Part shown: positions 16,646-37,221 of the stretch, piece after piece
How positions within the stretch are numbered: position 1 is the first letter of the stretch
How the letters are laid out: the number at the start of each line of letters is the position of its first letter
Assembly (NCBI GenBank): GCA_964434285.1
Contig: CAYSUJ010000003.1
Span: forward strand, 20,992-84,991
DNA length: 64,000 nt
Reading direction: 5' to 3'
Source of the DNA: an uncultured Candidatus Saccharibacteria bacterium
GTDB taxonomy: Bacteria > Patescibacteriota > Minisyncoccia > Phycocordibacterales > UBA2100
Made by a program: the position numbers and the translations under genes
The notes under the pieces: model-generated
The model's database searches: none
Seen by the model: only the letters and a program-made list of their open reading frames with translations
What the model was told of the DNA's origin: nothing

Positions 16646-16690
16646 GAACCCAGTATACGAAGCTGCGCTTTTTCATGCTACTCTTCTTTC

Positions 16691-17674: not shown

Positions 17675-17732
17675 CTTACACTGACATGAGGCGCTCTACC
17701 AATGTCTCGCGCGGCACGGTTCAGCCGCTCGC

Positions 17733-18197
17733 TTGGTGCACCAAGGCATCAAGGATATACTGCCGGCCATGAAAGGGTATCTGAAGGAAGCGGCCTCGTT
17801 CATCTCGGTCTTCTACAGGACTACGGCACTGGGGCCGGTACTCATCGCTGATACGCTTCTCTTCCTCTTATTCGGCCTGTCACTCGTCCCCGGCGTCCCG
17901 CCGTTCATGCAGATCACTATCACCGTCCTCTTCGCGGCAGCCATCATGGTGACCCTCTACCAGATCCTCTTCTTCACGCATAAAGACCCGAACCGTCTCG
18001 CCCTCCAAGAGCAAGTGCATCAGCGCTACCTCGTCGACAAGATATACGGCGACGAAAGCCATGATATGGCGCGAGCAACCCTCGCGGCCGCGATCTTCAA
18101 TCCGAAGCTCTCAATGACCCAGAGCGATGTCATCCCATTGCCCGAAGGGACAGAAAAACAGCCCGATGCGCCAGATGAGCCACCTCAACTTGTATGA
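17733..18197 (+). CDS. Hypothetical membrane protein (154 aa)
   Basis: Two to three TM helices and an acidic C-terminus. It is the last high-GC gene before the GC drop at ~18.19 kb. Confidence 0.45.
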   Translation: MVHQGIKDILPAMKGYLKEAASFISVFYRTTALGPVLIADTLLFLLFGLSLVPGVPPFMQITITVLFAAAIMVTLYQILFFTHKDPNRLALQEQVHQRYLVDKIYGDESHDMARATLAAAIFNPKLSMTQSDVIPLPEGTEKQPDAPDEPPQLV

Positions 18198-18472
18198 AAA
18201 CGTACCTAATCGCAGCAAATACAAATAGTCCTTTTGATCCAGTAAAATTTCACAATTTTATTGTTGGTCTATATCCAAAGCATCTTTCTTCTTGGTGGCA
18301 CTATCTACCGGGTTCAATATTTTTAGTTCAAACAAATTTGCCACTAAATCAGTTAAACAGTTTAGTCTCACAACATATGGGTGGACTTCAATTTCTTATA
18401 ATTGAAGTTAATCCCGATCAGTCACAGGGTTGGCTACCAAAAGAGGCATGGAAATGGCTAGGAAGGGGTTAA
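18194..18472 (+). CDS. Hypothetical protein (92 aa), AT-rich
   Basis: First ORF inside the low-GC region. No family recognised. Confidence 0.4.
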   Translation: MKTYLIAANTNSPFDPVKFHNFIVGLYPKHLSSWWHYLPGSIFLVQTNLPLNQLNSLVSQHMGGLQFLIIEVNPDQSQGWLPKEAWKWLGRG

Positions 18473-18482
18473 AACTAACTTC

Positions 18483-19475
18483 TTAAAAGATTCTGTTTAT
18501 AAATCTTTTTCCGAACGCTTTTAGCTTTGCAAAAAGTGAAGTTTTTACGAACTCTTCTTCGGAAGAGCCAAAAGTCAGGTACGGATTTCGGATTGCATCT
18601 ATCATTTCAAGTCTTTCTTTTGGATTGTCTATTTCCTCATAATGAGCATCGATTTCATCTGCAATACCAGAAAAGTCGCCTACTCGCTTTCCGAGTAAGA
18701 AGTGGAAGTAATCTGAGTCTAGCGCGGGATCAAGAGACAACGGTTCCATGTCTCTTATAAAATCCATCAAAGAAGATTCTTTTGTTTTTAAGAGGAAGAT
18801 GAGAATCTCGATTGCGTTTCTTTCTTCGTCATCGAAAACAATTTCATCATTCCCCCAAAGGATTTTTGCGGCCTTTGAGGTGCTGCCTGAGATTTCATAG
18901 GTATACAGATTCTTTGCTCTCGCAGCATCTTCAATAATGGCGTGGAGTTGCGTGGTTATTTTCTTTACAGTGCGACCCATAAAGCGCTTAACTCTTAAAG
19001 AATTTTCTATCCCGAATATATTTTCCTTAGTATCAATTCCAAGATATTTACGCAGGAAGTGGTGCAGGGCTATCTTATCTTTTGATAGATCTTTAATCGA
19101 TTGCAGGTTAAATCTATCGTAACGATGAGTCTTGTAGAAAACAGAAAGAAGTCCTAGTAGAGCGATAGATGCACCGCCTGGATTAATGGGCACTCTTGCC
19201 TTTATCCTATTCAGAAGCTCTAAATGGTTATGCGTAAGAAGAGATTTTTCAAAGGCATTCACGTCAGTTTGTGCGTCGAACTCCAGAAGAATCACCGCTA
19301 CCTTAAGTAGCCTCTCAAGACCGATGGAAAGAGTGTAGAGGACTGGAAATACCTCTGTTTCCAGGCTTAAAGTCTTCATGTCATGAAGATTCTTCAAGCC
19401 GTCATATATGAAATTACAGGCAATTTCATGCTCGGTACCAAGCTGGAAATTCTGCCAGAATTGCTCGGGATTCAT
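18483..19475 (-). CDS. Hypothetical alpha-helical protein, possible Abi/HEPN-like abortive-infection protein
   Basis: 330-aa cytoplasmic helical protein in an AT-rich island context. It contains R-x(4-6)-H-like spacing (RYDRF...HH). The assignment is speculative. Confidence 0.35.
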   Translation of the reverse strand: MNPEQFWQNFQLGTEHEIACNFIYDGLKNLHDMKTLSLETEVFPVLYTLSIGLERLLKVAVILLEFDAQTDVNAFEKSLLTHNHLELLNRIKARVPINPGGASIALLGLLSVFYKTHRYDRFNLQSIKDLSKDKIALHHFLRKYLGIDTKENIFGIENSLRVKRFMGRTVKKITTQLHAIIEDAARAKNLYTYEISGSTSKAAKILWGNDEIVFDDEERNAIEILIFLLKTKESSLMDFIRDMEPLSLDPALDSDYFHFLLGKRVGDFSGIADEIDAHYEEIDNPKERLEMIDAIRNPYLTFGSSEEEFVKTSLFAKLKAFGKRFINRIF

Positions 19476-19542
19476 GGAAGATTAGTAAACACCTAAGGAC
19501 CTGGGGGTGCAATGATGTCCTTAGCAGCTATACAATACTTGA

Positions 19543-19728
19543 ATGACTGATGTGGAACTGATGACAATCAAGGAAGTTGCCGCGATGCTTAAGATATCTG
19601 AGCCCTCCGTTCGTCGCCTACAGCAGGAAAGACATGTCCCCTTCCTTAAGATTCGAGGAGCTATCCGCTTTGAGAAAACTGATATCTTGAATTATCTGAA
19701 AAAGGTTCGGATCGAATCTATCCGGTAA
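19543..19728 (+). CDS. Excisionase/MerR-type helix-turn-helix DNA-binding protein
   Basis: TIKEVAAMLKISEPSVRRLQQERHVPFLKIRGAIRFEKTDILNYL matches the HTH_17 excisionase-family DNA-binding domain. Confidence 0.7.
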   Translation: MTDVELMTIKEVAAMLKISEPSVRRLQQERHVPFLKIRGAIRFEKTDILNYLKKVRIESIR

Positions 19729-19821
19729 CCACTATTGGCCTTGTCGGTCTTTCCTGTACCGCTCTTCACTAGTAAAGCTCTGCTGTTGGCAGAGTTGCCC
19801 AAGAACGACAAAGCCCCAGGA

Positions 19822-20232
19822 TTATCTTAGACGATATCCATGGCTTTGGCGTATACCCGTTTTCGTCAAAATTACACGGACCGCTAGATAACAAAGCGGG
19901 TAGAGAATAATCGCACATGCGAGCTCAAAATATTTACTGAGAAATGCCTCTGGTCCGTTTATCAGTCCGACCAAAAATAAGATGCCGAAATAAAGATAGT
20001 GGTAGAGAAGACTGCCCAATGGTCCCCATCGACCAGTTAGAATGTATAACAAAATAACGAACAACAAGAGGCCGATTAGTATCCCTAGAATTTGGAATGG
20101 ATATGCGACAAGGATAGACATTCCGGCTTCCCACAGCTGGCGATATGCACCTTCAAGCGCCCTGTCGTACATGGCAGGAATTCCAGAAATCATTTCTGTA
20201 ACCATCTCGACTGGCGTAGAAGTAGAAGTCAT
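19822..20232 (-). CDS. Hypothetical membrane protein (136 aa, 4 TM)
   Basis: Hydrophobic ORF. The stop overlaps the start of the upstream gene, which is typical of operon organisation. Confidence 0.45.
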   Translation of the reverse strand: MTSTSTPVEMVTEMISGIPAMYDRALEGAYRQLWEAGMSILVAYPFQILGILIGLLLFVILLYILTGRWGPLGSLLYHYLYFGILFLVGLINGPEAFLSKYFELACAIILYPLCYLAVRVILTKTGIRQSHGYRLR

Positions 20233-21290
20233 TTTCCGAGAATTAATTTGACCAAATCTTCTTCTTTTTCATAAGCACGAAATCGTCCCTCAAGCATCCC
20301 GAGTCGATAGTGTACTCCCTCGCTCATAAGCCGCCAATTGGTGCCTATTAGCGTCTTATTTATGAGTCTTTTCAGATCATGACTACTTGCTCGCTCTTCC
20401 CTGTCTGAAGCGATGTCATGAACAGTAAACGGCACAACGACATCACGACCAATCTCGGGATCTTTGAACTGGAGCTTGATATATTTGGCAGCCTCCATAG
20501 CGGGAGCCAATAATTGTTCTAGCTCGATGATTTTCAGTCTTCGTATATTCGCCACCTGGTCGTACAGCTCTTTGTTATTATCTTTCTCCTTCTGTTTTTC
20601 GAGAACCTCATTGATACTCCGCAGCGTCTGCATCCATCCCACATACCTCTGCCCTTCCGCCTCATCGCAGAACCGCGCACGATCCTTCTCGAAATCAGGA
20701 TCTATTTTTGGCTTATCAGCAATCCGTTCGATTTCGCTCACTTCCCTGTTTCCGCACTTAGGACAGGTAGAAATTGTGACAAACTTTTTCTTGGTAGTCT
20801 TGTCTTCCTGCTTGAAAGACGTCCTGCACTTCGGACACTTGGAGCTGTTGTATTTCCATTCTTCGCTGTTGTCATAGAAGGCGCGGCGCGGGATGTGATT
20901 CAGTGTGCAGTCGTACATGAACATGACCCGATGCGGCTTATCTAAATTCGTCTCCATATGCTTATGTGTGACGAACATCTCTCTGCCACAGGTAAGGCAG
21001 TTGATGCCCTTAGGAGCCTTTGCCGATTCGAAGAACTGGTCTTTTTCTTCGTCATCACGCATCCATTGAGTAATGGTTTTTTCCTTCTTTGAATACAGCT
21101 CCCCTGCCAAGAACCATACATGGAGTCGGCTAAAGGCACCGACCATGCGTTCCTTATCTTTCTTCGTAAGCTTCTTTTTCTCGTGCTTCTGAATGTCTTC
21201 TCCCGAGATCGCTTTTTCCGCCCAGCGACACCGTTCGATCGTCATGCGATCATAGCGATCTACATATTCCTGACGGGGCTTAAGATGCAT
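20229..21290 (-). CDS. Hypothetical protein with multiple zinc-ribbon motifs
   Basis: CLTCGREM, KCPKCRTSF and CPKCGNREVSE CxxC pairs. Lys/Glu-rich. No enzymatic domain recognised. Confidence 0.45.
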   Translation of the reverse strand: MHLKPRQEYVDRYDRMTIERCRWAEKAISGEDIQKHEKKKLTKKDKERMVGAFSRLHVWFLAGELYSKKEKTITQWMRDDEEKDQFFESAKAPKGINCLTCGREMFVTHKHMETNLDKPHRVMFMYDCTLNHIPRRAFYDNSEEWKYNSSKCPKCRTSFKQEDKTTKKKFVTISTCPKCGNREVSEIERIADKPKIDPDFEKDRARFCDEAEGQRYVGWMQTLRSINEVLEKQKEKDNNKELYDQVANIRRLKIIELEQLLAPAMEAAKYIKLQFKDPEIGRDVVVPFTVHDIASDREERASSHDLKRLINKTLIGTNWRLMSEGVHYRLGMLEGRFRAYEKEEDLVKLILGK

Positions 21291-21300
21291 AGGACGCTAT

Positions 21301-22002
21301 TTATTCATCCATGAGCTTTTTAGCTTTTTTGCGTAGCGCCTCAAGCTCTGCAAACTCCTCTTTATGGTGTTTAAGCTGAGCATTCATTAACCACGGGAAG
21401 GTGGTCTTATGAAGATAATCATGCGAGATTTGAAACACACCCACAGCGGATTCCTTCTGTAGCTGTACGAATTTCTCTCCTTTTGAGTAATAGCCTGATT
21501 CTTTATCTAATTGATCAATAAAAATCACAAATTTCGTAACAAATTCCTCGTCAACCATTCGACTCTCAAGTCCCAATGGCGGTAGTTCATCATGACAATA
21601 GATATTCCTGAGACATTCTATAAAACCCACTAAAGGATCCTCAAGAAACTCATCCTTAATCTTCTTAGCATACTCGCCATTTAATGCAGCTTCGTCGGAC
21701 CCATATAATTTCCGAATCATTTTTCTACAATGATCTTTATATGCGACTGCACTGCAGAGAAAATTTACAAAACATCTGGAAGCTTCAATCATTACTTTCT
21801 CTTTCTCCGTTTCCTTACCTTTTGGGAAAAAAGGAATAGCTTTCGTTATCTTTTCAAGATAACCGTAATTTATCACCATTATTTTGAAACTATTCTCCAG
21901 CCTATACGCATGGAGATCGAGTTGATATCCACGAGAACTTTCAATTTCATCAATCACTTTTTTAAATTCCTCAAAATTCTTCATATTATGAATCACTCCC
22001 AT
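21301..22002 (-). CDS. Hypothetical protein (233 aa)
   Basis: AT-rich helical ORF. No family recognised. Confidence 0.4.
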   Translation of the reverse strand: MGVIHNMKNFEEFKKVIDEIESSRGYQLDLHAYRLENSFKIMVINYGYLEKITKAIPFFPKGKETEKEKVMIEASRCFVNFLCSAVAYKDHCRKMIRKLYGSDEAALNGEYAKKIKDEFLEDPLVGFIECLRNIYCHDELPPLGLESRMVDEEFVTKFVIFIDQLDKESGYYSKGEKFVQLQKESAVGVFQISHDYLHKTTFPWLMNAQLKHHKEEFAELEALRKKAKKLMDE

Positions 22003-22410
22003 ATTCGCACTACCTAAAATAAGTACAAGGAACCATTTGCACCTCTTGCACCTTTCTCACATCGTGGTGTTATACACACCCCCCTCTTGAAAAACGCTGT
22101 GCTTAAGCGAGGATAGAGAGGCACATTGAAAGACCATTAAGATCTTCCTCTGGTTCTTCTCGGGATACGTAGCCGAGGGCGAAAGCCGAAATACACAGAA
22201 TCGAAAGGGTGATCGAAATGGATTTACAGAGAAAACTGATGCGTTGAGCTCGAGGGCGAAAGCCATAGGAGCGATATCCATCCAAGGGCTGTAGATCTGA
22301 AGTTGTAATTCCCCACGGGGTTTAACAGCTTTGGATTTGCGGCTCTTTTTTATTGAGCCGCCAATCCCCTTGGTGTCTTTCTCGTTGCGATAGCAATTAG
22401 AACGAATGAT

Positions 22411-23730
22411 ATGGAAAAGCTCATTTGGCATACCCAACAGCGGAAAGTAAACGAATTACTCCCCTTCAAGCAGAATCCTCGCAAGATGTCAGAAAGACAG
22501 ATTGCCGACCTTACCAAGTCTCTCAAGAAATACGGCCTCGTGGAGATCCCTGCTATCGATACGGATAACCGAATCCTAGCGGGTCATCAGCGACTCGCTG
22601 TCATGCAGCTCCTTGGTCGCGGCGATGAGATGATCGACTGCCGCATTCCTAACCGAAAGCTGACAGAGGAGGAATTTAAACAGTACCTCATCATTTCCAA
22701 TAAGGTGCATGGCGACTGGGATGAGGACATTCTTGCTGAGTACTTCGATATGGACCTTCTTCTTGATTCCGGATTCGATACCGAAGAATTGAGTGATGTT
22801 TTCTCAGAAGCCCTCGAAACAGAAGATGACAAATTCGATATCGAAAAAGAGTTAAAGAAGATTGAAGGGCCGAAGTCCAATTCTGGAGAACTGTATCAGC
22901 TTGGTCAGCATCGCCTTTACTGCGGAGACTCAACCAATCCCGAATCAGTCCTGAAAGTGGTCGGGGACGCGAAGATCGACATGGTGTATTGCGATCCTGT
23001 GTACAACATTAATCTTAGCTACAAGACAGGGATCGGCGGCACAAAAAACTATGGCGGGTCTGCCAAAGATGTTCGCTCCCCCGAGGAATACGAAACATTC
23101 TTGCACAAGACTATTGAGAACGCACTCGCTGTAGCCAAGCAAGATGTGCATGTCTTCTACTACTGCGATCAGACGTATGTCCCACTCATCGCTAAGCTCT
23201 ATGCCACGTTGGGCATCCGATTCATGCGCACCTGTATCTGGCTCAAGGGAGTGGCCAATCCAGTGCCGCAGGTCGCCTTCTCAAAGGTATATGAGCCCTG
23301 CGTATACGGCGTGCGCGGAAAGCCCTACCTCTCCCCTCACCACACCAACTATGACGAGGTGCTGAACAAGGAGATAGGGACTGGTGGTCAGATGATCGAG
23401 AATTTCCTCGACATGATCGATGTCTGGGCAGTGCAACGGCTCTCAGGCAGCGAGTATGAACACCCTACCGAGAAGCCGGTGACCCTCCATGACAAGCCGA
23501 TACGCCGCTGCACGAAGATCGGAGACAACATCCTTTCTCTCTTCGGCGGAAGCGGTGGTGAGCTGTTAGCAGCCCATCAACTCAACCGGAAGTGCTTTAT
23601 GGTCGAAATGGACCCTGTCTTCGTGGATCTCATTATCAGGCGCTACGAGGCATTTACCGGTGAGAAAGCGAAGCGTATCAGTGTACGAAATACGGACCGG
23701 AAATCGTTGAAAAGATTTGTCAGGAGTTGA
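22411..23730 (+). CDS. ParB-like nuclease N-terminal domain fused to a beta-class N6-adenine/N4-cytosine DNA methyltransferase
   Basis: N-terminal ParB/Srx fold (PAIDTDNRILAGHQRLAV). MTase motif IV DPVY (VYCDPVYNI) precedes motif I FGGSGGE near the C-terminus, which is the N6_N4_Mtase arrangement. No cognate restriction endonuclease gene is nearby. Confidence 0.75.
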   Translation: MEKLIWHTQQRKVNELLPFKQNPRKMSERQIADLTKSLKKYGLVEIPAIDTDNRILAGHQRLAVMQLLGRGDEMIDCRIPNRKLTEEEFKQYLIISNKVHGDWDEDILAEYFDMDLLLDSGFDTEELSDVFSEALETEDDKFDIEKELKKIEGPKSNSGELYQLGQHRLYCGDSTNPESVLKVVGDAKIDMVYCDPVYNINLSYKTGIGGTKNYGGSAKDVRSPEEYETFLHKTIENALAVAKQDVHVFYYCDQTYVPLIAKLYATLGIRFMRTCIWLKGVANPVPQVAFSKVYEPCVYGVRGKPYLSPHHTNYDEVLNKEIGTGGQMIENFLDMIDVWAVQRLSGSEYEHPTEKPVTLHDKPIRRCTKIGDNILSLFGGSGGELLAAHQLNRKCFMVEMDPVFVDLIIRRYEAFTGEKAKRISVRNTDRKSLKRFVRS

Positions 23731-24272: not shown

Positions 24273-24284
24273 TCAAGAAACTCC

Positions 24285-24743
24285 TTAGTTTTGGAACGAG
24301 GTCAGAATACCATTCTCGAAGTAGAGGTAGTTCGAGTAACCGTATACCCATTGCTCACGCTTTCCGCGGGAGGTGACGGTGGTATTTATGTCGTCCGGCT
24401 TTCCCCACGAGGCTAGTGCCTGTGCCTGATCCATGCCCAGTTTAACTTTCTTCTCTGCGATTATCTCGCAGGTTTCCTTATCCCAGCCGGGATGAGCTGT
24501 ACAGATTTGTCCTGCCTTGGATGCTTCCCATTCTTTTTGTTCTTCAGCCAATCTGGCCTGCTTTCGTTCTTCTAGTCTCTTCTCCGCTGCGACCATTTCA
24601 GGCGTTAGCTCGGCGCGGTATTGAGCTTCTGTATTGGTGCTCACTGTATCCTCCGCGAGAGAACCGGCTACACCAAGACCTATGAACGTTAAGAGTGCGA
24701 GAACGATGATGGTAGAGGTTTTCCATCCTATCGGTTTGCTCAT
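24285..24743 (-). CDS. Hypothetical secreted/anchored protein (152 aa)
   Basis: N-terminal signal/anchor (TSTIIVLALLTFIGLGVAGSLA) followed by a coiled-coil-like region. Confidence 0.4.
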   Translation of the reverse strand: MSKPIGWKTSTIIVLALLTFIGLGVAGSLAEDTVSTNTEAQYRAELTPEMVAAEKRLEERKQARLAEEQKEWEASKAGQICTAHPGWDKETCEIIAEKKVKLGMDQAQALASWGKPDDINTTVTSRGKREQWVYGYSNYLYFENGILTSFQN

Positions 24744-25128
24744 ACGATTTTCTCCTTATTGGATAAATCGATGGCGGCTTTGAGACACACAAAGCCCGCC
24801 ACCAGGAGGGCCGAAGCCCCTACTAGGGTTTCCCCTAATAACGCGATGAACGCCCTGAATGACGGGTTGTCTATGTTCATCGCGATTCCTACGACCATGC
24901 CACCGTTGCCGATAGTTTAGGTCGTCGCCCTCTCGGGCCAATATTGGGTATGTAAAGAGCATAATAGCCCCGACTCGGCTATTGGCCAAGACCCTAGCAG
25001 ACCCCAGGTGTTTGCGAATAGGCTTCCACTACCACACGACGATTCAATGGCTTTGCGAAGTTAAACCACCCACCCGATGATTGGGGTAAGTATGATGGTC
25101 TTACAAATGGCTTTTTTCACAAACAGTC

Positions 25129-25731
25129 CTACTTACGCGCGTCAATTATCGTCCGCACGTACTCTTTTAGCTGTTCCTGAGAAACTTCTGGCCATTTTTT
25201 GAGCTTGTTTTCCGTAAGAGAGTTCACGCAAATGACCAAAGACGGCACATCAGGATTCGGCGTCTCGAAAATCATGGTTGCAGTATTCGGTTTGAGTGCA
25301 ATTGCGTCGTGGAATACTCCCGCTTTCATTTTGTATGCTGATCCGACTGAATGGGTTATATCTTCACGCGTTGTAAGTGAGCATCTCATTCTTGTCATCT
25401 CAAGCGTAGAACTGTCTCCATGATTTTTCACTTCCCAGATTTTATAGTCCCCGTCCGGATCCAACGTCACATCATAGCGGCGTTCAAAGCCCTCTCCACA
25501 TAGGATATGGCTGGTGAAGTCAAAAGAGTGGTTGTGAATTCTGTCGGGCGCACCAAGTTCATCGACATTCATTGCCTCGGGCCAAAAGCGCAAACGAATT
25601 TTTCGAGGCCCTCCCTGGTCAACCTTTGCATGGATGAATCCGAGAGGGTGCATGTGCCCCTCGATTGACAACTTACTCTCGTAAATATCAGAGAGAATCT
25701 GATCTAATTCACTGTCAGATAGATATTCCAT
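25129..25731 (-). CDS. Hypothetical cupin-like protein
   Basis: IHNHSFDFTSHILCGEG resembles a cupin metal-binding His cluster. It is the last gene of the co-directional operon. Confidence 0.35.
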   Translation of the reverse strand: MEYLSDSELDQILSDIYESKLSIEGHMHPLGFIHAKVDQGGPRKIRLRFWPEAMNVDELGAPDRIHNHSFDFTSHILCGEGFERRYDVTLDPDGDYKIWEVKNHGDSSTLEMTRMRCSLTTREDITHSVGSAYKMKAGVFHDAIALKPNTATMIFETPNPDVPSLVICVNSLTENKLKKWPEVSQEQLKEYVRTIIDARK

Positions 25732-25803
25732 AAAACATCGCTACGCTAATTGGCGGGATAATACAACTCTCATGCTAAATTTCCAAATTCGTTATCCAGT
25801 ACT

Positions 25804-26451
25804 TTATTTCACTTCCCCGAGATGTGCGTGGTCATTCCAACCGAGCACATACCATCCTGAATCGTGAAGTCCAAACGACAAATCATATTGAATAAGCGTA
25901 ATGCCAGTATTGTGAGGAACGAACGTCCGTCTTATGTGATCGTATGCTTCTGGGGTTATTTTGTCTCCAAAAATAACCAACGCGAGCACCATTTTCAGGA
26001 ATTCTCCGTGGGTTACCACTAGAATATTCTGCTCCTTTCGTCCCGAGAGAAAGGCCATTGCCTCTTCGGCTCTCTGTTTGAGTTGGAAGTAATCTTCTTC
26101 ATCGGAATGCCGCTTGTGTGGGTCTGCAAACGTATCTTTAACAATACGCATAATAGACTTAACCTCGGCATCTTCCCTGTTTCTGCCACGCACTACCGAC
26201 GGACGCTTAATTTCCTCAAACAAAGGATTTTCGGTAACTGTATGCCCAGTACGTTCGGCGATAATGCGTGCAGTTTGTGCGGCGCGCGTCATTGAACTTG
26301 CAAATACCACGTCAACCGGGATACTTTCGAAACGCTTGGCCATGAATTGAGCCTGTTTGACACCTTTTTCAGATAATTCGACTACTGGGAGCTGGTATTC
26401 ACCGGCCTCATTGCCGTTCGTGGAGCCATGGCGAACAAAATAGATATTCAT
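25804..26451 (-). CDS. Histidine phosphatase (phosphoglycerate-mutase-like) family protein
   Basis: N-terminal catalytic IYFVRHGSTNGN (RHG motif), with a TH/GE pattern in the C-terminal half. Confidence 0.7.
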   Translation of the reverse strand: MNIYFVRHGSTNGNEAGEYQLPVVELSEKGVKQAQFMAKRFESIPVDVVFASSMTRAAQTARIIAERTGHTVTENPLFEEIKRPSVVRGRNREDAEVKSIMRIVKDTFADPHKRHSDEEDYFQLKQRAEEAMAFLSGRKEQNILVVTHGEFLKMVLALVIFGDKITPEAYDHIRRTFVPHNTGITLIQYDLSFGLHDSGWYVLGWNDHAHLGEVK

Positions 26452-26461
26452 AGCGGTAATT

Positions 26462-27214: not shown

Positions 27215-27218
27215 AGAT

Positions 27219-28454: not shown

Positions 28455-28466
28455 AGAAATTTGTTA

Positions 28467-28976: not shown

Positions 28977-28996
28977 AGCCCCCTTTTAGCAGAAGT

Positions 28997-30049
28997 TCAG
29001 CCTTTTATCAAAGTCCGCCTTAGCTTTCCCCTTTCAGATTCAACAAATTTCTCTGCATATGCATGATTTTCTTCACTAATCTGCCTGCGTTTTTTCTCGC
29101 TGTCAGGCTCGAAGCTTCGGTTTTTTTGCGGATCTTTTGAGTATGTCTTTGTACGCTCCAACATTCCTTGGACTTCAGGGTTGGTCAGAGATAAGTTCCA
29201 CGCTGAATCGAGTATTGCGGGAAGTTCACTGGTAATCTGCAAGTAGTCCACAAAAAGCGCGTTCTGGTCATCATGTGCGAGTGCCTTTTTACAAAAAGTA
29301 CCGAGGAGACGGCATGCATACTCGCCATCGGTCAGAGATTCGGTTTCCGATTCACTCAGCCCAAGTATCGGAGCAAAGAACGACACATGAGTATGGCGGC
29401 TACGCATCCAGCCCGGTGGATCCCGCAAGACGGATTCGAGTACTTCTGCTCCATTACGATGAGTGAACATCCATCGAACACTTGGATACAAACTCAATAT
29501 CTCATCAATGAATAGAATATTCCAACTACGAAACTTTACGAATACACGCTCGCAGTGATCGGGCTTGCAGGCATAAATCGCACTGAGAGCCGCCTTAAGG
29601 AGTTGTTGCTTCGTTAAACCGCCAGGCAATTTCAGCGCAGGGTTCAATATCGCAAGTGCAATAGTTGGTTCTGACACAACATAAAATCGATCCACCGTTG
29701 CCAGCATCTGCATTGCAAGTGTGGATCCACAACGAGACATGTGGAAAATAAAGTGTGTCCCTTGTTCGTTAATATTCCTATCTTGAAAGTCGCGCGCAAA
29801 CACGTCAACTGGGACAAGTTCAATTCGCGGATCGTTCATATCGTAATGTAGCGGACGAACCAATACATTTTGCTCCTCTCCGATGAGCTTATTTACATCC
29901 GCCACACGAAACTGACCAGCAAGAGAATCGAGAAAGAACGGGTCTGTCAGGTTGATCTTCGGTACTTTTGCAAGAACAACATGACATTCCCCATTGGCGA
30001 TGTGTAAATCGATAGGGAGTGATACGGTCTTGTTTGACTTTTCGTCCAT
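28997..30049 (-). CDS. Sulfotransferase family protein (PAPS-dependent)
   Basis: FIFHMSRCGSTLAMQML matches the 5'-PSB loop of Sulfotransfer_3-type enzymes. A downstream 3'-PB-like region is present. It is co-operonic with the APS-kinase-like domain. Confidence 0.55.
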   Translation of the reverse strand: MDEKSNKTVSLPIDLHIANGECHVVLAKVPKINLTDPFFLDSLAGQFRVADVNKLIGEEQNVLVRPLHYDMNDPRIELVPVDVFARDFQDRNINEQGTHFIFHMSRCGSTLAMQMLATVDRFYVVSEPTIALAILNPALKLPGGLTKQQLLKAALSAIYACKPDHCERVFVKFRSWNILFIDEILSLYPSVRWMFTHRNGAEVLESVLRDPPGWMRSRHTHVSFFAPILGLSESETESLTDGEYACRLLGTFCKKALAHDDQNALFVDYLQITSELPAILDSAWNLSLTNPEVQGMLERTKTYSKDPQKNRSFEPDSEKKRRQISEENHAYAEKFVESERGKLRRTLIKG

Positions 30050-30055
30050 ATAGCA

Positions 30056-31078
30056 TCACGTTTGGTGCCCCAAAAGTTGTTTGAGGATATGGTCTGATAT
30101 ATTCGGCAAGGTAATGCGGTCGGAGATTCCGAGCGCCGCGGCAACACCATTGATCGCACGTACGAAGTTTATGCTTCGTATCAAATCCCCGCGTTGACGC
30201 TTGTCGAATACGCCACGCGGTTGGCGCACAAGATATTCTTGTGCCTCTTTGTAGATTGGCTGAGTAGGCACCGGCATCGCATCAATGAGTTTGTAACTCC
30301 ACGAACCATTTTCCTTAAAGAAAATCACATTATCCTCCCCAGCAAGCGCGAGAATCTGCCCCTCATTCTTGGCGTACGATATTGCCTTTTGAACGAAATC
30401 TATAAGGGCATCTTTGAGACCAGAATCAGTGTGCGCACGCTCAGTAAGGTGCGTGAGGAACCTCCCAGACGAAAGGTCTTGGAATTCCAAAAACTCCTTC
30501 TCGTCCACCTGCCGCCCCTCAAGTAAGTCATGCGTCATTTTGAGATAAACCGCTTCGTCTTGCGAAGAGTTTTCAGGATAATTACCGAAAGAAAAAGCCA
30601 GACGTCCTGGATATTCGGCTTCTTCACTAAACTTTTGGACAGCGACGTGCGTCCATACACTTCGGACTTTTCGTGCCTCTTCGGGCAACTTTCTACCAAT
30701 GTAATCGTCGCGGAATAATTCCTCCAATATCTCGGCCGAGATGGGAACCTGCATCAAATAACGCCTTTCTTGCAAAGCATGATCCGATCCGAAATGCCTC
30801 CAAAGATTTCGCGCTTCTGCGTTTTTGCGCCACACATCCCCGGCCGAATACACTTCGGCGTACGCCCGCATACTGTCTTCATCCGTAATACCCTTTGTGT
30901 AGCATTCATACAAAATGTCTTTGATTTTTCTCCAAGAGGCCTTAACGACCAATTCGGGATGCTTAGGAACGCGATACACTAAGTGATCTCCACCTCGCTT
31001 ATAGAACTCGGGCTTGAAGCGCGAAATAATATCGGCATCCTCCGGCAATTTATCAAATACTCCCTTGTCCAAATTCAT
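30056..31078 (-). CDS. Hypothetical protein, possible atypical kinase-like fold
   Basis: No clear motifs except a Gly-rich GGDHLVYRV near the N-terminus and scattered conserved Asp. The kinase assignment is speculative. Confidence 0.35.
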   Translation of the reverse strand: MNLDKGVFDKLPEDADIISRFKPEFYKRGGDHLVYRVPKHPELVVKASWRKIKDILYECYTKGITDEDSMRAYAEVYSAGDVWRKNAEARNLWRHFGSDHALQERRYLMQVPISAEILEELFRDDYIGRKLPEEARKVRSVWTHVAVQKFSEEAEYPGRLAFSFGNYPENSSQDEAVYLKMTHDLLEGRQVDEKEFLEFQDLSSGRFLTHLTERAHTDSGLKDALIDFVQKAISYAKNEGQILALAGEDNVIFFKENGSWSYKLIDAMPVPTQPIYKEAQEYLVRQPRGVFDKRQRGDLIRSINFVRAINGVAAALGISDRITLPNISDHILKQLLGHQT

Positions 31079-32067
31079 ACTTTTTGAAAGTAACTTTTAA
31101 CGACTTTATCTCCGGCGTGCAAAAGCTCTTCTCGGGAAACGATGTCCAAAACCGTAAATTTATCGTCACGCGGACGAACCCGTCCAAGTACAGAAACTAT
31201 TTGATCGGCCGTTGTATTTTCCTGAATGTACTCGTGCATATCCACGTCTTTTTTAAGATACTCAACAATAGTATCAGTTATTGCATTCCCGTATCCCGCC
31301 TGCACCTGCAGTTGCTGTGTTACGAGAATCCCAAATAACAAGCCCATGCCATGCGGACACGCCTTTTCGCTCTCAATGTAGGAAGAAATGATGTGTTCTG
31401 ACCCACTAACCAATCTTCCGCTTCCCTGCAGTCTTGTAAGACTACCGGATTCAAGCAAACAATCGAGTAATTCCTTGAGTGCTTCTCGGGTGAACGGCTG
31501 GGAGAGTAAATCCAGAGATCTTTGAGCCAGCTTTTGTGCGCGACCACGCAAGGCAGAATCAAATACCTCACGGTGACGCTCGACAGCAATATCACAGTCT
31601 ACTTGAGCCGTGGCAGTTGCCGCCACCTCAACGATACCGAATTTATTTAGAATGTACGCCTGTTCCAACAAGTCAAAGTCAACAACGATTTCACTGGCAA
31701 CAACAGAATTGGAACTGAGCTTGCCGTGTTCAGAATCGAAAAAACTATTCCGGTGAGTTGCAAAAGAATTTGTAGACAGCGCGGACGGAATAAAACAAAA
31801 CGTACTATTCGTTTTGTGGCAGATATATTTAACAACATCAACAACTGTTCCAGCACCTATGGCGACTATCCGTGCATTTTTCTGCTTAAAATCACGAAGA
31901 AAAGTATCAAGGTCATGACGGTCGGCCCTCGCAACTTCTAAAACATTAAAGCGGGTTTTAGCTAGATGCTTTGTGTAATCGTTGACGATATAGAGATCGA
32001 AGTCCTGTTGCGAGAGATAATCTGCCACCCCACGAAAGGTCACTTTTGGGTCTGGTAGGGATAGCAT
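31075..32067 (-). CDS. DHQ-synthase-like / Fe-ADH superfamily enzyme (sugar-phosphate cyclase or glycerol-1-phosphate dehydrogenase-like)
   Basis: RIVAIGAGTVVDVVKYI is the Gly-rich NAD-binding turn. The domain order and the SGSEHIISSYIE metal-site-like region are typical of the DHQS/G1PDH/glycerol dehydrogenase superfamily. Start trimmed to MLSLPDP (ATG at 32067). Confidence 0.55.
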   Translation of the reverse strand: MLSLPDPKVTFRGVADYLSQQDFDLYIVNDYTKHLAKTRFNVLEVARADRHDLDTFLRDFKQKNARIVAIGAGTVVDVVKYICHKTNSTFCFIPSALSTNSFATHRNSFFDSEHGKLSSNSVVASEIVVDFDLLEQAYILNKFGIVEVAATATAQVDCDIAVERHREVFDSALRGRAQKLAQRSLDLLSQPFTREALKELLDCLLESGSLTRLQGSGRLVSGSEHIISSYIESEKACPHGMGLLFGILVTQQLQVQAGYGNAITDTIVEYLKKDVDMHEYIQENTTADQIVSVLGRVRPRDDKFTVLDIVSREELLHAGDKVVKSYFQKV

Positions 32068-32210
32068 ATTGTCTCCTATTTTCCGCTGTCTTCGGTGGCA
32101 TACTAACAAAAATGATGAGGAAATAAAGGCTTTTAGGCTACTAAGTTACCAACACCTAAGGTTTCCGAGGCGTCCTTGACTCCCTAAGGGGTCAGCGTCA
32201 TTCATGGGAT

Positions 32211-33536: not shown

Positions 33537-33555
33537 TAATCGTGCTCGTATTTCT

Positions 33556-36500
33556 TCACCCCTCTTCCTGTAGTGGCAGATCTGAAACAAAAAGTTTAAT
33601 TGCTGCCGCTTTGTTCTTGAATACAAATTGTACTTTCTCGTAGATGTTTATGAGCACTCTACGACGCAGATATCCCTCCTTGTCTGCATACTCCCTCAAC
33701 CAAGCTGGATCTTGAGAGATGAGCTTGGCTCGGGCGGCATCGTCTTTATTCAGATCAGTAACTTTCAATTCAAATATTTCCTCCCTGTGAGTCTTATCCT
33801 GTGTGTCATTGGTTGGTGCGTACTGTACTAGCTCGCCCAGCTCCTTGAGCGAGGTAACCACGAGAAAGTTTTTGACATCTGCGTCATTAGTAAATACGCG
33901 GAAAATCGGTACGTATTTTTCTCCTATTTTGAAATAACCATCGCACCAGCGGTCCTCGTCAAACGAGGACTTTGGACGATTTCGATGATCCCATCGAGGA
34001 ATAAACGCCTCCGACCTTCGTATCCCTCCGTCATACTCGAACATGTGGTCGAGCGACTCGATGACGATGAGATTTTCGTCATCCAACGTCAAAATTGCTC
34101 TTTCAACTGCGGGGACGATATCATTCTTTGGAATAGTCTCTTTGGTTTCTAGGCCCTCAAGGATGTCACGGAAAATAATCTGACTCTCCGAGCTTGCCAT
34201 GCCATTGCCATAATTTTCGCCCCATCCGGCGTAGTGGACATGCCAATTTTTTATAAATGCGGCCTTCTCATCCAACTGGTTGTAGCCATACGCTTTAACC
34301 TCTGCATTAGCGGTGTCAGTGCGATCAACATACGTACCCGCTCTCGTGATGATGCTTCGGATTACGCTTCCATCATGAAAAGCATCGAGAAAAGATTTTT
34401 TGAATTCAGCCAGCTTCTCGGGGTCTATGTCCGTCCGTTTGACACGCTCCTCCTCGTCTTTTTCCTGTGCGTCTTTTGCTTTGGTCAGTAATGTTTTTAG
34501 TATGCCTGTCTTGGAAAGTGCAACTGTATCCAAAATAAATTCCCAATTTGTTGGCGAAGTTTCGATATCGGTAAGTAGTTTCCACAAAGCGCCATCGCGC
34601 TGCTCTGCAAGGAACGCCAAATCACGATTGTGAGGCAGCTCAATCGTATCCACATTGTCTGATGTGACCCCTCTTAAGAGAGTGAGGGCATTCACTGCGT
34701 AGAGCCGGTCGAGCTTACTATTGAAATCTATAGTATGAACTTCACCGTCCGGTATGAGTTCCCAATTATCCCAATTCCAAAATCGCTCAACATCGAAATC
34801 TCGAGCCGAAGAATAAAGAGTGGTGAGCTCTTTTATTTCATGCGGCAGATAATTTTTAATATCATTGTAATAAGCTCTAAGCTCCGTATCGTTCTGATGG
34901 AGGCGCACCATCTCAAAAATCCAAGTCGCCATGCCAAACACTAACTGCTGCTTGCGGCGCTGAATTTTCTCGGTGGCGTCCTGTCGAGCCTTCTGCAGAT
35001 CTAGCTTTTCTTGCAATATCTTTTTCTCCTCATCAGTCCGCGCAGACTCAAGGTCGTATTCGCTATAACGCGAGAATTCTTGGTCGCGTATCAAGTGACG
35101 GTAGAGAGTATTTAATTGGGACAAAAATTCTTTAAAACTATCCCTATCGCGCTTGTCGAAGGCGGTTTTGATGAGGTCCTGAAAAGTCTGGAAAACGGGT
35201 ATCGAGAAGTCAGCATACTCCGTCAATTTCTTTGCGTCGCCAATCTTGCGAGTCAACTGATTTTCTATGTAGTAGTCAGTAATTTCCTTCAGATGCCTCC
35301 ACGACCTGTCGATCATGAACTCTCGTAATGAAGGTGCGAGGCCTTCTGTTGTAGTTGCGAGCCAATACACTCGTGACGGAAACCGCACAAACACTTGATA
35401 CAGGTACTGATCCCCATACTTGATAGCGCGGGTAGCAATGGCCATCGGCAGATAAATGACGGTCGAGATAATTTCTCGATCGCGACTTTCTACAGCCTTC
35501 TCGACAATGTCTTGGATACTGTCTTCAAGCCACCCTATATTGAGCTGGCCACCAAAAAGATTCCCGCGTTCCTGCTTGGCCTGATCGTAACTGAAACCGC
35601 CGCCACAACGCGTGATCATCTCAAGGAAGGACTCGGAAAGACTTAGGTACGTTTTTCTGAGATCATCGATCTTGCCGAGCTTTTTCTCTACGATAGCGGT
35701 AATGAATTGATCCTTGAGTCCCGCCAACTCCAGATTGACCTCCTCTGAAAAATTATCCTCTTTGCCAATGATGAAAGCCTCTTGTGCCAGTTTTTGCAAT
35801 TTCTTAAGCACACCTTTGTCGGTGACACTGCGTTTCTCCACGGCGAGCAATATCATGTTGCCCGATTCGTCCCTATCTTTGAATTCAACGCGATCGGCAT
35901 ACTTTTTGACGAGGAATTGCCGGACCGTAGTGTAATTTCTGGTCGCCGACGAGGATGGAGTTGAGGCTGGGTCACCCGCTGAGAGCGTTGGCGGGCGCGG
36001 CTTGTCTTTATAAAAACTGAAGCCATTTTTATTCGCCTCACTCTCAGCGAGCTTGGCAAACTCGTCCAGTTTGTCGAGTCGTATATCCTTGACGACACCC
36101 GCTGTATCCGCAGAAAACGCATGGTGAGTCTCTTCCTCGTCACTCATCAAAAACGGATTATACGTAAGCTCGATTTTGTTCTCGCCCAACCTCTGTATAA
36201 GAAGATTGTCGGCGTAGCGTTCATTCATTCCCAAGTCGATGCTTTGCTCAATACGATCTTTGAGGAGACGCATCCGCTTTTCATAAAACAGTACCTTGCT
36301 GAGCAAGATGTTCACGAGTCGCCATAGAGAAATTATTGTAAAAATTCCCACCAAAAAAACCAGCACTGCACTCCATGCATTTACATCGAACCAAATGAAA
36401 TTCAGAAATACGAGGATTTCTCCTACAGTGAGCGGAAATAGCATGCTCTCGCGTAAGTACACCCGTGCGCGATCTTTCGTCTCGTCGTCTCTAACGCTTT

Positions 36501-36972
36501 CGGCGACAAAAATAATCAGTGCAAAAATTATCGCTCCCACACCGGCTAAGACGGCAATGAGATTCTGGTAATGATTGCTTTCTTTGAAATCAAGAGCGCC
36601 GAGCGACAGCCCGAAATGAGGCCACCACGAGTCCGGAGTGTGAGAAAGGCCGGAGAGTACAAGTATTGGTACAAGCACAGTAATCAAAGACTTCCACGAT
36701 GGGGTGTAGATTTGTTCAATCCAGCGCGTGAAAAAAGATTTGGGCGAGGTCTTACACGAGCGCTCTATTTCTTGCCTGACCAGGACGGATAGGAGATTTG
36801 TATTACTGCCTCTCTGCGTGTGCCAAAATGACCAGACGGCAAGAGCGGCTACTGTAAGCGCCAAGACAAGCCAAAGATGGTTAGGACTGCTTAGGAAAAC
36901 GCAAAAGCTGGCGGCGGCCGCAATAATCAAGAAGGGCGTGAGCCAGATTTTGTTACAGAAATAACATTTCAT
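33556..36972 (-). CDS. Large hypothetical membrane-anchored protein (1138 aa)
   Basis: The N-terminal ~230 aa have 5-6 TM helices. They are followed by ~900 aa of soluble, partly coiled-coil sequence with no recognisable Walker, nuclease or other catalytic motif. Confidence 0.6.
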   Translation of the reverse strand: MKCYFCNKIWLTPFLIIAAAASFCVFLSSPNHLWLVLALTVAALAVWSFWHTQRGSNTNLLSVLVRQEIERSCKTSPKSFFTRWIEQIYTPSWKSLITVLVPILVLSGLSHTPDSWWPHFGLSLGALDFKESNHYQNLIAVLAGVGAIIFALIIFVAESVRDDETKDRARVYLRESMLFPLTVGEILVFLNFIWFDVNAWSAVLVFLVGIFTIISLWRLVNILLSKVLFYEKRMRLLKDRIEQSIDLGMNERYADNLLIQRLGENKIELTYNPFLMSDEEETHHAFSADTAGVVKDIRLDKLDEFAKLAESEANKNGFSFYKDKPRPPTLSAGDPASTPSSSATRNYTTVRQFLVKKYADRVEFKDRDESGNMILLAVEKRSVTDKGVLKKLQKLAQEAFIIGKEDNFSEEVNLELAGLKDQFITAIVEKKLGKIDDLRKTYLSLSESFLEMITRCGGGFSYDQAKQERGNLFGGQLNIGWLEDSIQDIVEKAVESRDREIISTVIYLPMAIATRAIKYGDQYLYQVFVRFPSRVYWLATTTEGLAPSLREFMIDRSWRHLKEITDYYIENQLTRKIGDAKKLTEYADFSIPVFQTFQDLIKTAFDKRDRDSFKEFLSQLNTLYRHLIRDQEFSRYSEYDLESARTDEEKKILQEKLDLQKARQDATEKIQRRKQQLVFGMATWIFEMVRLHQNDTELRAYYNDIKNYLPHEIKELTTLYSSARDFDVERFWNWDNWELIPDGEVHTIDFNSKLDRLYAVNALTLLRGVTSDNVDTIELPHNRDLAFLAEQRDGALWKLLTDIETSPTNWEFILDTVALSKTGILKTLLTKAKDAQEKDEEERVKRTDIDPEKLAEFKKSFLDAFHDGSVIRSIITRAGTYVDRTDTANAEVKAYGYNQLDEKAAFIKNWHVHYAGWGENYGNGMASSESQIIFRDILEGLETKETIPKNDIVPAVERAILTLDDENLIVIESLDHMFEYDGGIRRSEAFIPRWDHRNRPKSSFDEDRWCDGYFKIGEKYVPIFRVFTNDADVKNFLVVTSLKELGELVQYAPTNDTQDKTHREEIFELKVTDLNKDDAARAKLISQDPAWLREYADKEGYLRRRVLINIYEKVQFVFKNKAAAIKLFVSDLPLQEEG

Positions 36973-37134
36973 GGGCTCAGATATTACTCCTCAGATCGTC
37001 CATAATTACTTCATATTACGCTTTTCCTATCGAGGAGCCAGTTTCCCAAAAACACCTAATTTACCCTCGCTGCAGGGCATCAACAGCGCATCGGAAGGGT
37101 ATGCGTCGGCATACCTCCGATAAAAAATACTTCG

Positions 37135-37221
37135 GGCGGAGGGTGAGAGATTCGAACTCTCGGTGGGTTACCCCACGCTCGCTTTCCAAGCGAGTGCACT
37201 AGACCACTATGCGAACCCTCC
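37135..37221 (-). tRNA. tRNA-Ser(GGA)
   Basis: Manual fold of the reverse complement. Acceptor GGAGGGU/ACCCUCC, U8, 3-bp D-stem with a GG-containing D-loop, anticodon stem CUCGC/GCGAG with loop UUGGAAA (anticodon GGA). Long variable arm GUGGGGUAACCCAC, T-arm GAGAG-UUCGAAU-CUCUC, discriminator G. CCA is not fully encoded (CCC). Confidence 0.85.

Follow-up and report, generated by a model that had tools for sequence, protein, structure and literature searches.

Introduction

Characterized large serine recombinases (LSRs) mostly target protein-coding genes or intergenic sites. Those of phages and genomic islands (phiC31, Bxb1, A118, TP901-1, CcrA/B of SCCmec, and XisF) combine resolvase, recombinase, and zinc-ribbon domains with a Y-x-R-x-S-T motif, are encoded at the element end beside the attachment (att) site, and leave no long flanking direct repeats. 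The 3' ends of tRNA genes are the sites of tyrosine-integrase islands (P4-like, CP4-57-like), which occupy recurrent hotspots, have an atypical composition, and carry accessory cargo. Here, we analyze a 64,000-nucleotide stretch of patescibacterial DNA (contig CAYSUJ010000003.1; hereafter, the window), in which an LSR-bearing element lies between 18.19 and 37.13 kb and abuts the 3' end of a tRNA-Ser(GGA) gene.

The window element shares with the LSR systems listed above the three domains, the motif, the position of the recombinase gene beside the att site, and the lack of long flanking repeats. Unlike the named LSR families, its recombinase scores far under the equivalog models and, at 441 aa, is short for an LSR; its clade also differs in its targets, which are tRNA 3' ends, with tRNA-Ser used class-wide whatever the anticodon. 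The element resembles tyrosine-integrase islands in its site, composition, cargo, and recurrence, but it has neither a tyrosine integrase nor a duplication of the tRNA 3' end; the tRNA seems untouched, and the conserved arm of the element starts just after it. Similarly, it is like satellites of the phage-inducible chromosomal island (PICI) type and grounded prophages in its size (~19 kb), its integrase, its TerS-like helix-turn-helix (HTH) protein, its richness in cargo, and the lack of capsid, portal, tail, and TerL genes. Unlike PICI-type satellites, no replication or primase module, repressor pair, or packaging-redirecting genes were identified in the window, and relatives of the element carry TerL, so the loss of TerL looks like decay or cargo replacement.

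Patescibacteria (candidate phyla radiation, CPR) have tiny genomes and very limited metabolism, and their acquisition of accessory functions is poorly understood. To our knowledge, genetic tools are lacking for most of them. Hundreds of genomic islands and prophages have been predicted in 125 groundwater Patescibacteria metagenome-assembled genomes (MAGs) (Gios et al. 2025, PMC12455944), and expressed ccrB-like recombinases have been reported in Patescibacteria lineages, including one Paceibacteria (PMC9938205). The window island is of the general kind predicted in PMC12455944, and one comparison locus used below (L024) comes from the same MAG series (nzgw465). Searching the text of that study turned up no mention of recombinases, integrases, or tRNA targets, and it does not describe the linkage of LSR, tRNA-Ser, and a TATCGG motif or the gene backbone reported here. 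Our literature search found no paper on an LSR targeting tRNA-Ser in Patescibacteria, and the element family is undescribed as far as this search showed. Taken alone, an island of this sort is rather ordinary; the interest lies in the properties of the family.

We consider the 18.19–37.13 kb segment to be part of an insertion of ~28 kb and to represent a decayed copy, heavy in cargo, of a phage-like integrative element from a very large patescibacterial family, an explanation to which we give a probability of roughly 0.7. An earlier note on this DNA, made from the sequence alone, had proposed a horizontally acquired integrative island at this place, and this proposal stands, with an LSR as its integrase at the 3' end of tRNA-Ser(GGA). 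The coordinates of all features are collected in Table 1.

The Large Serine Recombinase and Its Targets

The LSR, named as such in the earlier note, has the full architecture of its class, i.e., a catalytic domain (PF00239, 7.3e-20, residues 26-170), a recombinase domain (PF07508, 5.1e-15), and a zinc beta-ribbon (PF13408, 7.2e-10). The nucleophile-serine motif YARKSTESEERQ is present in the translation, and YARKST is intact. A recombination directionality factor could not be recognized. Its best NCBIfam matches are CcrB and XisF, both far under their equivalog cut-offs; the Ccr scores are 116 bits against 900 for CcrB, 64 against 900 for CcrC, and 53 against 700 for CcrA. The family is large, with at least 8000 homologues at E <= 1e-20, the best 120 of 8000 being 74-93% identical and those with a named source belonging to Patescibacteria.

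Targets were surveyed in 33 IMG/VR and 80 metagenome loci, with close homologues defined by at least 65% identity. A convergent tRNA gene lies 0.11-6.7 kb past the LSR stop codon in 46 loci with close homologues and is a tRNA-Ser in 45 of them, with the anticodons gga, tga, gct, cga, and act. Where the arrangement is minimal, 114-149 bp separate the LSR stop from the tRNA; larger gaps hold one or two variable genes. LSRs occupy the same M48/tRNA-Ser(GGA) site as in the window in five other loci (L131, L142, L145, L160, and L163), and the LSR of L088 sits at a tRNA-Ser(GGA) beside GroEL. More distant LSRs are found at tRNA-Asp, Glu, Gln, Asn, and Trp.

In every pair tested, the LSR surpasses host proteins (GroEL, RNase J, M48, LemA) in conservation, with 67-88% identity where the flanking host proteins have 39-70%. 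For instance, L088 and the window share 88% identity in the LSR, 63% in GroEL, 57% in RNase J, and 44% in SBP, and in six other loci, the LSR is 67-77% identical versus 48-62% for M48. The recombinase was not found in the sequence available at the loci of the closest hosts. At the nucleotide level, blastn homology between the window and L087/L088 is confined to the LSR gene with ~67 bp upstream, which is probably a promoter or 5' leader, and to the tRNA with 37-60 bp downstream; it stops at the LSR stop codon, and the cargo on both sides differs. The conservation of the LSR, its patchy presence, and the confined DNA homology indicate the recent horizontal spread of a mosaic element.

Separately, the anticodon ACT is unusual for a bacterial tRNA-Ser; ARAGORN called such genes near the LSR elements of L146, L153, L156, L175, L177, and L096.

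The tRNA-Ser Site and the Extent of the Insertion

The host is a Paceibacteria/Kaiserbacteria-like CPR bacterium. It was compared with 80 loci that the M48 peptidase adjoining the tRNA retrieved (best identity 82%) from MAGs of Paceibacteria/Kaiserbacteria-type Patescibacteria. The linkage LemA-M48-tRNA-Ser(GGA) is kept in most of these loci, and the tRNA is the single canonical one called by ARAGORN in the whole window. In relatives with an empty site, the order is M48, tRNA-Ser, a 136-aa membrane gene, and DUF192, followed in some by ribonucleotide reductase (RNR) or a tetratricopeptide repeat (TPR) protein. By tblastn, only 108 nt separate tRNA-Ser from the 136-aa gene in L024 (65% identity) and 59 nt in L016 (59%). 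The tRNA and DUF192 lie 0.13-6.4 kb apart in 30 relatives but ~28 kb apart in the window, the largest insertion seen.

This comparison points to a lineage-specific insertion of ~28 kb, from 37.13 down to ~9.14 kb, whose tRNA-proximal part at 18.19-37.13 kb has a foreign composition. Since the backbone shared with relatives resumes only at 9.14 kb, the boundary at 18.19 kb is a compositional junction and not demonstrably the end of the insertion. Thus, of the ~19-kb island (18190-37221) delimited in the earlier note, the foreign segment is real, but the insertion measured against relatives is longer. The relatives also answer the question of whether the same genes might occur at the same place everywhere, as the empty-site arrangement tRNA-Ser/136-aa gene/DUF192/RNR exists. 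The M48/tRNA-Ser(GGA) site is an insertion hotspot, at which the contigs of several relatives' MAGs stop. The absence of the segment from the orthologous site in relatives and its atypical composition are together what is expected of a tRNA-integrating island.

The composition is not uniform. In 1-kb windows, GC content is 0.50-0.55 in the backbone; within the island, it is 0.40-0.46 (18-22 kb), 0.50-0.52 (23-25 kb), and 0.44-0.50 (25-37 kb), before returning to 0.51-0.54 past 37 kb. At finer scale (100-bp windows), GC falls from 0.52-0.60 at 17.7-18.2 kb to 0.32-0.39 at 18.2-18.8 kb, so that the shift at ~18.19 kb is completed inside 100 bp, and backbone composition is regained at the 3' end of tRNA-Ser(GGA). 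The tetranucleotide distance to the backbone, scored as z relative to the backbone windows, reaches 8-11 in the 18-23 kb part and 2-4.6 between 23 and 37 kb. Both sides are backbone-like, with z from -1.6 to +3.3 over 9-18 kb and no more than 2 past 37 kb. This signal is far outside the scatter among backbone windows, and the two-compartment GC pattern is real. The sharp shift, the return beyond the tRNA, and the unequal GC of the 18-22 and 25-37 kb parts, all remarked on from the sequence in the earlier note, are therefore borne out by measurement.

As a side observation, in ten LSR-free relatives (L009, L013, L027, L037, L050, L052, L054, L061, L070, and L083), a terminator-like hairpin follows tRNA-Ser(GGA), and ~50-70 nt past the tRNA there is an inverted copy of the T-arm/acceptor 3' strand of their own tRNA (e.g., GGGTGAGGGATTCGAACC). 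The copy, which the window lacks, co-varies with the tRNA sequence and might reflect trailer pairing, an attB feature, or an inversion relic.

The Element End beside the tRNA

Directly past the tRNA terminus (...CTCCGCC), the sequence on the tRNA strand reads CGAAGTATTTTTTATCGGAGGTATGC-CGAC-GCATACCCTTCCGATGCG. This element-end sequence, a candidate LSR att half-site, is common to L087 (88% over 66 nt) and L088, and the family consensus of the arm after the tRNA is roughly GACAATTTAGTATCGG. The motif TATCG[GA] lies within 30 nt of the tRNA end at 40 of 46 LSR-linked tRNA-Ser sites but at only 2 of 65 LSR-free M48-linked sites, which marks the TATCGG arm as element-derived. Past TATCGG, the sequence falls into several subtypes. 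The element-end sequence of the window contains a palindrome (37090-37121) with 13-15 nt per arm, found only here and in L087 and L088, all LSR loci, with related forms in L015, L021, and L111. It folds into a hairpin (-20 kcal/mol, z = -2.05), which was considered as a covarying RNA, a reading that we did not adopt. L111 carries this site with no tRNA; in front of it lies a sequence that imperfectly mimics a tRNA 3' end, and this tRNA-less site may be an attP.

A direct repeat of the tRNA-Ser 3' segment, which the earlier note had proposed to look for, is present nowhere within the window, either at up to 3 mismatches over 43, 23, 16, or 15 nt or by local alignment. Two candidates were discarded: a partial match to the tRNA 3' end at 25999-26017 (17/19 nt) lies inside the histidine-phosphatase gene, and its local-alignment score is no outlier; a decayed copy suggested at ~9244-9275 by MAFFT against L024 has a Smith-Waterman score of 23.5, compared with 19.7 +/- 3.2 (max 32.5) for shuffles. 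The tRNA-proximal site has no similarity to the candidate left junctions at 8.9, 17.2-17.7, 18.19, 19.4-19.8, 22.0-22.4, 24.7, and 32.1 kb. An ATCGnAG resemblance at 18205-18222 is weak, was noticed by eye, has a chance expectation of ~3%, and is not claimed. As regards the classic tRNA-targeting geometry invoked in the earlier note, the island does abut the 3' end of tRNA-Ser; however, the tRNA is not duplicated, and an arm of the LSR family starts a few nucleotides past it.

Three other loci have a different arrangement. In L015 (11537-11760), L080 (10950-11201), and L096 (16065-16316), a full tRNA-Ser is followed 80-150 nt on by an exact 17-32-nt repeat of its 3' end, and in L015, the LSR-type TATCGG arm is placed after this repeat. 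These repeats suggest secondary events at the hotspot, e.g., another integrase type or tandem relics.

A ParB-Methyltransferase/Terminase Backbone

The LSR belongs to a recurring set of genes. In related loci, a ParB-methyltransferase (ParB-MTase), an HTH protein, and TerL stand in this order directly upstream of the LSR. ParB-MTase homologues occur upstream of the LSR in ~35 related loci, often with a second MTase; more than 25 LSR loci have a homologue of the HTH protein placed between the MTase and TerL genes; and TerL (Terminase_6N/6C; phrog_38, 1.5e-75) is present in 32 related loci. In the window, the ParB-MTase and HTH genes are upstream of and co-oriented with the LSR, which is convergent with the tRNA and its TATCGG arm, just as in the family. 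The ParB-MTase has no restriction-enzyme partner, and the orphan ParB-N/methyltransferase of the earlier note is thus upheld by PF01555 and by the ParB and MTase families of PHROGs. The neighboring HTH protein, read there as excisionase-type, does have an HTH; since its homologues, HTH_Tnp_1_2 proteins, precede TerL in related elements, it is best read as small-terminase-like instead.

TerL itself is missing from the window, where tblastn with four family TerL proteins found neither the gene nor a remnant (best E = 0.6); its place is taken by a 152-aa open reading frame (ORF), a LOOT RNA, and an operon. Likewise, no PHROGs match to phage structural genes (portal, capsid, tail) was found in the window, which is not what an intact prophage would contain. 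Within the ParB-MTase/TerS/TerL/LSR family, the copy in the window is a TerL-less derivative.

The LOOT RNA (RF03000) appears to be part of the family. It scores above the gathering threshold in 6 of the 10 other LSR-element loci scanned and was also found in L089 and L190 by nhmmer. In LSR elements, LOOT and the LSR are always encoded on opposite strands, with LOOT close to the ParB-MTase/terminase genes. The Rfam RF03000 entry classes LOOT only as a small RNA gene, and we found no association with LSR elements in the main text of the LOOT discovery paper, which does not discuss this RNA.

Proposed Mechanism and Implications

In general terms, the family can be rationalized as follows. Its backbone consists of ParB-N/MTase, TerS-like HTH, TerL, and LSR genes, the last pointing at a tRNA gene, and the LSR would recombine attP with an attB made up of the extreme 3' end of tRNA-Ser and the bases after it. 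This attB is inferred from the acceptor end ...CTCCGCC(A), which all tRNA-Ser isoacceptors share, together with the trailer. The crossover would fall at or just past the tRNA terminus, which would leave the tRNA intact and would explain the lack of a tRNA-derived direct repeat, while the element side of the junction would keep the conserved arm TTTAGTATCGG and the palindrome. Cargo is accommodated in two slots, one between TerS/TerL and the LSR and the other between the LSR and the att site. In the window copy, the first slot has lost TerL and contains the LOOT RNA and an eight-gene operon, and the second contains a 1138-aa membrane protein. With neither TerL nor structural genes, the element cannot package itself; its intact LSR may still allow it to excise and re-integrate.

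A broader proposal, which we put forward tentatively and hold to be somewhat less probable than its negation, is that these elements form a phylum-wide system. One LSR clade would be specific for the shared 3' end of all tRNA-Ser, with sister clades for tRNA-Asp/Glu/Gln/Asn/Trp, and would integrate without disrupting or duplicating the tRNA. The system would move the ParB-MTase/terminase backbone, LOOT, and two cargo slots between distant ultra-small bacteria, supplying metabolic modules (S-adenosylmethionine (SAM)/3'-phosphoadenosine-5'-phosphosulfate (PAPS)/sulfotransferase, copper resistance) and defense modules, and LOOT would be functional, e.g., in packaging or regulation.

If this is true, a single recombinase family that places 10-30 kb of cargo at tRNA-Ser across a phylum would be a major route of gene flow. 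The LSR would also be a ready-made tool for site-specific integration with a predictable, universally present attB, and an orphan RNA, LOOT, would gain a genomic home. The operon further points to a conserved gene cluster, present in more than a single phylum and of unassigned chemistry, in which a kinase-like protein accompanies a sulfotransferase and an archaeal-type SAM synthetase.

Alternative Explanations

Several observations count against the explanation given above. The junction palindrome is complete, which a simple attL/attR hybrid would not predict, and no second att-like palindrome or half-site is found anywhere in the window; with no tRNA-derived repeat either, the far end and the crossover are placed by inference. 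Seven close LSR loci have no tRNA although at least 7 kb downstream is available. On the host side, no strain-level empty-site allele was found: searches for exact copies of the proteins on the flanks recovered nothing beyond pieces of this locus, and the closest relatives share only ~80% protein identity. The right join lacks an independent span, and the function given to the operon is putative.

The strongest competitor is a composite hotspot, in which successive insertions accumulated after tRNA-Ser and the 18.19-kb boundary joins an older, ameliorated island with copper and stress genes to a younger LSR element. We rate this history just short of an even chance, and it is compatible with the LSR-element explanation. 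It accounts for the resumption of the backbone only at 9137 when compared with L024 and L016, and across the 80 loci, homologues of the 9-18 kb genes are limited to single matches to the multicopper oxidase (L074) and PNPOx (L009). Along the same lines, copper and metal genes are typical cargo beside close LSR homologues, the region downstream of tRNA-Ser ranges from 0.13 to 6.4 kb in relatives, and many MAG contigs end there. However, the 9-18 kb region matches the backbone in both GC and tetranucleotides and contains no recombinase or att relic; moreover, integration by an LSR destroys attB, so tandem accretion is not straightforward.

In an unlikely variant, the AT-rich module from 18.19 to ~22.4 kb was acquired separately from an LSR element at ~22.4-37.13 kb, much as the earlier note had envisaged in suggesting a mosaic of two acquisitions. 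The two parts do differ in tetranucleotide z (8-11 versus 2-4.6) and GC (0.40-0.46 versus 0.44-0.52), but there is no recombinase, transposase, or repeat at 22.0-22.4 kb, and L120 also has divergently transcribed genes of unknown function directly upstream of its ParB-MTase. Homologues of the 353-aa Zn-ribbon gene of the AT-rich module (20229-21290) are found, at 33-42% identity, inside the LSR elements L103/L211, L120, and L173. Because the recognizable pieces from 20.2 to 37.13 kb are all in the gene pool of the family, two unrelated acquisitions become less plausible, and they are not required, given that the backbone straddling the GC change is conserved in dozens of related elements. The uneven GC is accounted for just as well by mosaic cargo inside a single family of elements.

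An assembly artefact, i.e., a low-GC segment from another Patescibacteria genome or phage joined through the conserved 3' end of tRNA-Ser, is very improbable. Coming from either side, Logan contigs of the source sample break off within the tRNA and share 30 nt (37136-37165), and contigs of relatives end there too. On the other hand, the 18.19-kb junction is spanned by two independent Logan contigs, L003 and L004, from two runs of one study; the expected host synteny on both outer flanks, which a chimera would not restore, argues against a chimera; and the LSR-tRNA-Ser(GGA)-M48 arrangement was assembled independently in five other loci. An apparent sequence variant at 18461 in L004 is an artefact of another sort, its divergent tail being the Illumina adapter AGATCGGAAGAGC (L004 2723-2736, AGATCGGAAGAGCGTC).

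A classical tyrosine-integrase island with a direct repeat of the tRNA 3' half, to which the position at a tRNA 3' end and the partial tRNA-Ser 3' repeats of L015 (32 nt) and L080 (19 nt) might point, is largely refuted, as there is no tRNA 3' repeat and Pfam found no phage-integrase-family match, hence no tyrosine recombinase, among the ORFs at 9-37 kb. Equally hard to credit is a domesticated, vertically inherited LSR in a segment that is not mobile: the family is extremely common and conserved in Patescibacteria, and a ccrB-like recombinase was reported as highly expressed in Paceibacteria (PMC9938205), yet the gene is patchy among close hosts, exceeds GroEL, RNase J, M48, and LemA in identity in all pairs, sits at different tRNA-Ser isoacceptor loci and sometimes in non-tRNA contexts, is linked to terminase genes, and is found in IMG/VR contigs.

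Cargo of the Window Copy

Table 1. Features of the window and of related loci. Positions are those of the window unless a locus is named.
Feature	Position	Strand	Evidence or content
Ribonucleotide reductase (RNR) gene	4276-8051		Syntenic with relatives
DUF192 gene	8266-8871		Syntenic with relatives
Conserved 136-aa membrane protein	8727-9137	-	Syntenic backbone resumes here; then DUF192, RNR
Backbone-GC accessory region	9138-18189		DUF305, multicopper oxidase, VTT, DUF2202, Hsp20, TrmB-PAS, PNPOx, tRNA-like gene, 154-aa protein
GC-rich 154-aa two-helix membrane protein gene	17733-18197		Last gene before the AT-rich part
Compositional left junction	18190-18200		ATGA: stop of the 154-aa membrane gene overlaps ATG of the 92-aa ORF
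AT-rich module, five ORFs of unknown function	18194-22002		92 aa (+), 330 aa (-), 136-aa membrane (-), 353-aa Zn-ribbon (-), 233 aa (-)
ParB-N + N6/N4 DNA methyltransferase fusion	22411-23730	+	PF01555 2.7e-24; phrog_498 3e-88; phrog_620; PADLOC MTase_II
TerS-like HTH protein, 181 aa	23727-24272	+	HTH_28, HTH_Tnp_1, HTH_Tnp_1_2
152-aa secreted or membrane-anchored protein	24285-24743	-	phrog_11546 (unknown function) 1.6e-14
LOOT RNA (RF03000)	24807-24923	-	61.5 bits vs gathering 46.4; model 1-121 of 121
Eight-gene cargo operon	25129-32109	-	Pfam, NCBIfam, PDB sequence search
Protein of unknown function, 200 aa	25129-25731	-	
Histidine phosphatase	25804-26451	-	
Nucleotidyltransferase-like + APS-kinase-like fusion, 269 aa	26462-27271	-	
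Archaeal-type methionine adenosyltransferase (MAT)	27219-28454	-	PF01941
TadA/CDA-type deaminase	28467-28976	-	
Sulfotransferase-family protein, 350 aa	28997-30049	-	Many homologues with PF13469 (Sulfotransfer_3)
Kinase-like protein, 340 aa	30056-31078	-	Invariant K46/N250/D266; weak YrbL (protein-kinase-like) matches
Fe-ADH_2/glycerol-1-P-dehydrogenase-like	31075-32109	-	
Conserved LSR upstream stretch, ~67 bp	32142-32210	+	blastn to L087/L088 from 32142/32144
Large serine recombinase, 441 aa	32211-33536	+	PF00239 7e-20, PF07508 5e-15, PF13408 7e-10; convergent with tRNA
1138-aa protein, N-terminal multi-pass membrane region	33556-36972	-	Cargo slot between LSR and att/tRNA
Element-end sequence, candidate LSR att half-site	37076-37134	-	Holds TATCGG motif and palindrome
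tRNA-Ser(GGA), integration target	37135-37221	-	ARAGORN; Rfam RF00005 56 bits; 3' end toward island
LOOT in LSR loci	L099 6287-6408; L101 5348-5469; L110 4850-4979; L163 3751-3869; L121 5232-5345; L132 3187-3316		
Copper/metal genes beside close LSR homologues and in the window's accessory region	L087 5906-9237; L088 253-8857; L089 11711-19750; window 9292-11831		

The operon occupies the first cargo slot (Table 1). Its methionine adenosyltransferase (MAT) scores 302 bits against PF01941 (cut-off 27), while its top NCBIfam equivalog score, 312.8 bits, stays below the cut-off of 481, and the protein is, by its scores, a putative divergent member of the archaeal-type family. In the 269-aa fusion, the P-loop half aligns with adenosine-5'-phosphosulfate (APS) kinases and the ~60 N-terminal residues with nicotinamide mononucleotide (NMN) adenylyltransferases. 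The MAT has 440 homologues at E <= 1e-10, and parts of the operon recur elsewhere: L208 (Patescibacteria, 10001-13444) groups the MAT, the histidine phosphatase, the deaminase, and the 350-aa protein, and L209 (an Allosphingosinicella MAG, 10001-13293) groups the MAT with the 350-aa and 340-aa proteins among restriction-type and SMODS genes. The operon is probably a self-contained module that provides PAPS and SAM and modifies a small metabolite, possibly nucleoside-like, by phosphorylation or sulfation.

In the second slot, the 1138-aa protein has no match in Pfam, NCBIfam, PHROGs, PADLOC, or PDB, but a 30%-identical homologue adjoins the LSR in L191. Elsewhere, the slot between the LSR and the tRNA holds a RelA_SpoT protein (L087) or DUF4238 with a 295-aa protein (L088). 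Sequence and profile searches of PDB with the 350-aa, 340-aa, and 1138-aa proteins gave nothing meaningful, and the matches to pentatricopeptide repeat (PPR) proteins are repeat artefacts. The ORFs of the AT-rich module have no significant match in Pfam, PHROGs, or PADLOC save phrog_12680 for the 233-aa ORF. PADLOC returned only the methyltransferase and a weak match to the deaminase on the island, and across Pfam, PHROGs, and PADLOC, no island ORF other than the methyltransferase has an Abi or defense match; the Abi-like ORF of the earlier note thus finds no counterpart.

The Accessory Region and Minor Observations

The region between 9.14 and 18.19 kb includes DUF305 and multicopper oxidase genes, which sit in the backbone-GC part of the insertion. 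Similar copper and metal genes (P-type ATPase, multicopper oxidase, CsoR-like, DsbA, and DUF305) recur beside the closest homologues of the LSR (Table 1).

Near the right edge of this region is a tRNA-like gene (17565-17664, minus strand) that scores 49 bits with the Rfam tRNA model and was missed by default ARAGORN. It has a normal acceptor stem, a Glu-like D-arm, a T-arm, and an insertion of 29-31 nt in the anticodon loop that folds into a stable extension helix. So short an insert is unusual for a bacterial tRNA. The anticodon would be CUC (Glu) if spliced at the canonical 37/38 position, or CUA (suppressor/'Pyl') according to the intron option of ARAGORN. Among 84 other loci, copies were found only in L003 and L004, which come from the same source sample.

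On the host side of the tRNA, a 103-aa ORF (38776-39087, minus strand) between LemA and M48 is assigned to PF05635 (23S_rRNA_IVP) by the gene-caller annotation and is kept in 7 of the 80 related loci.

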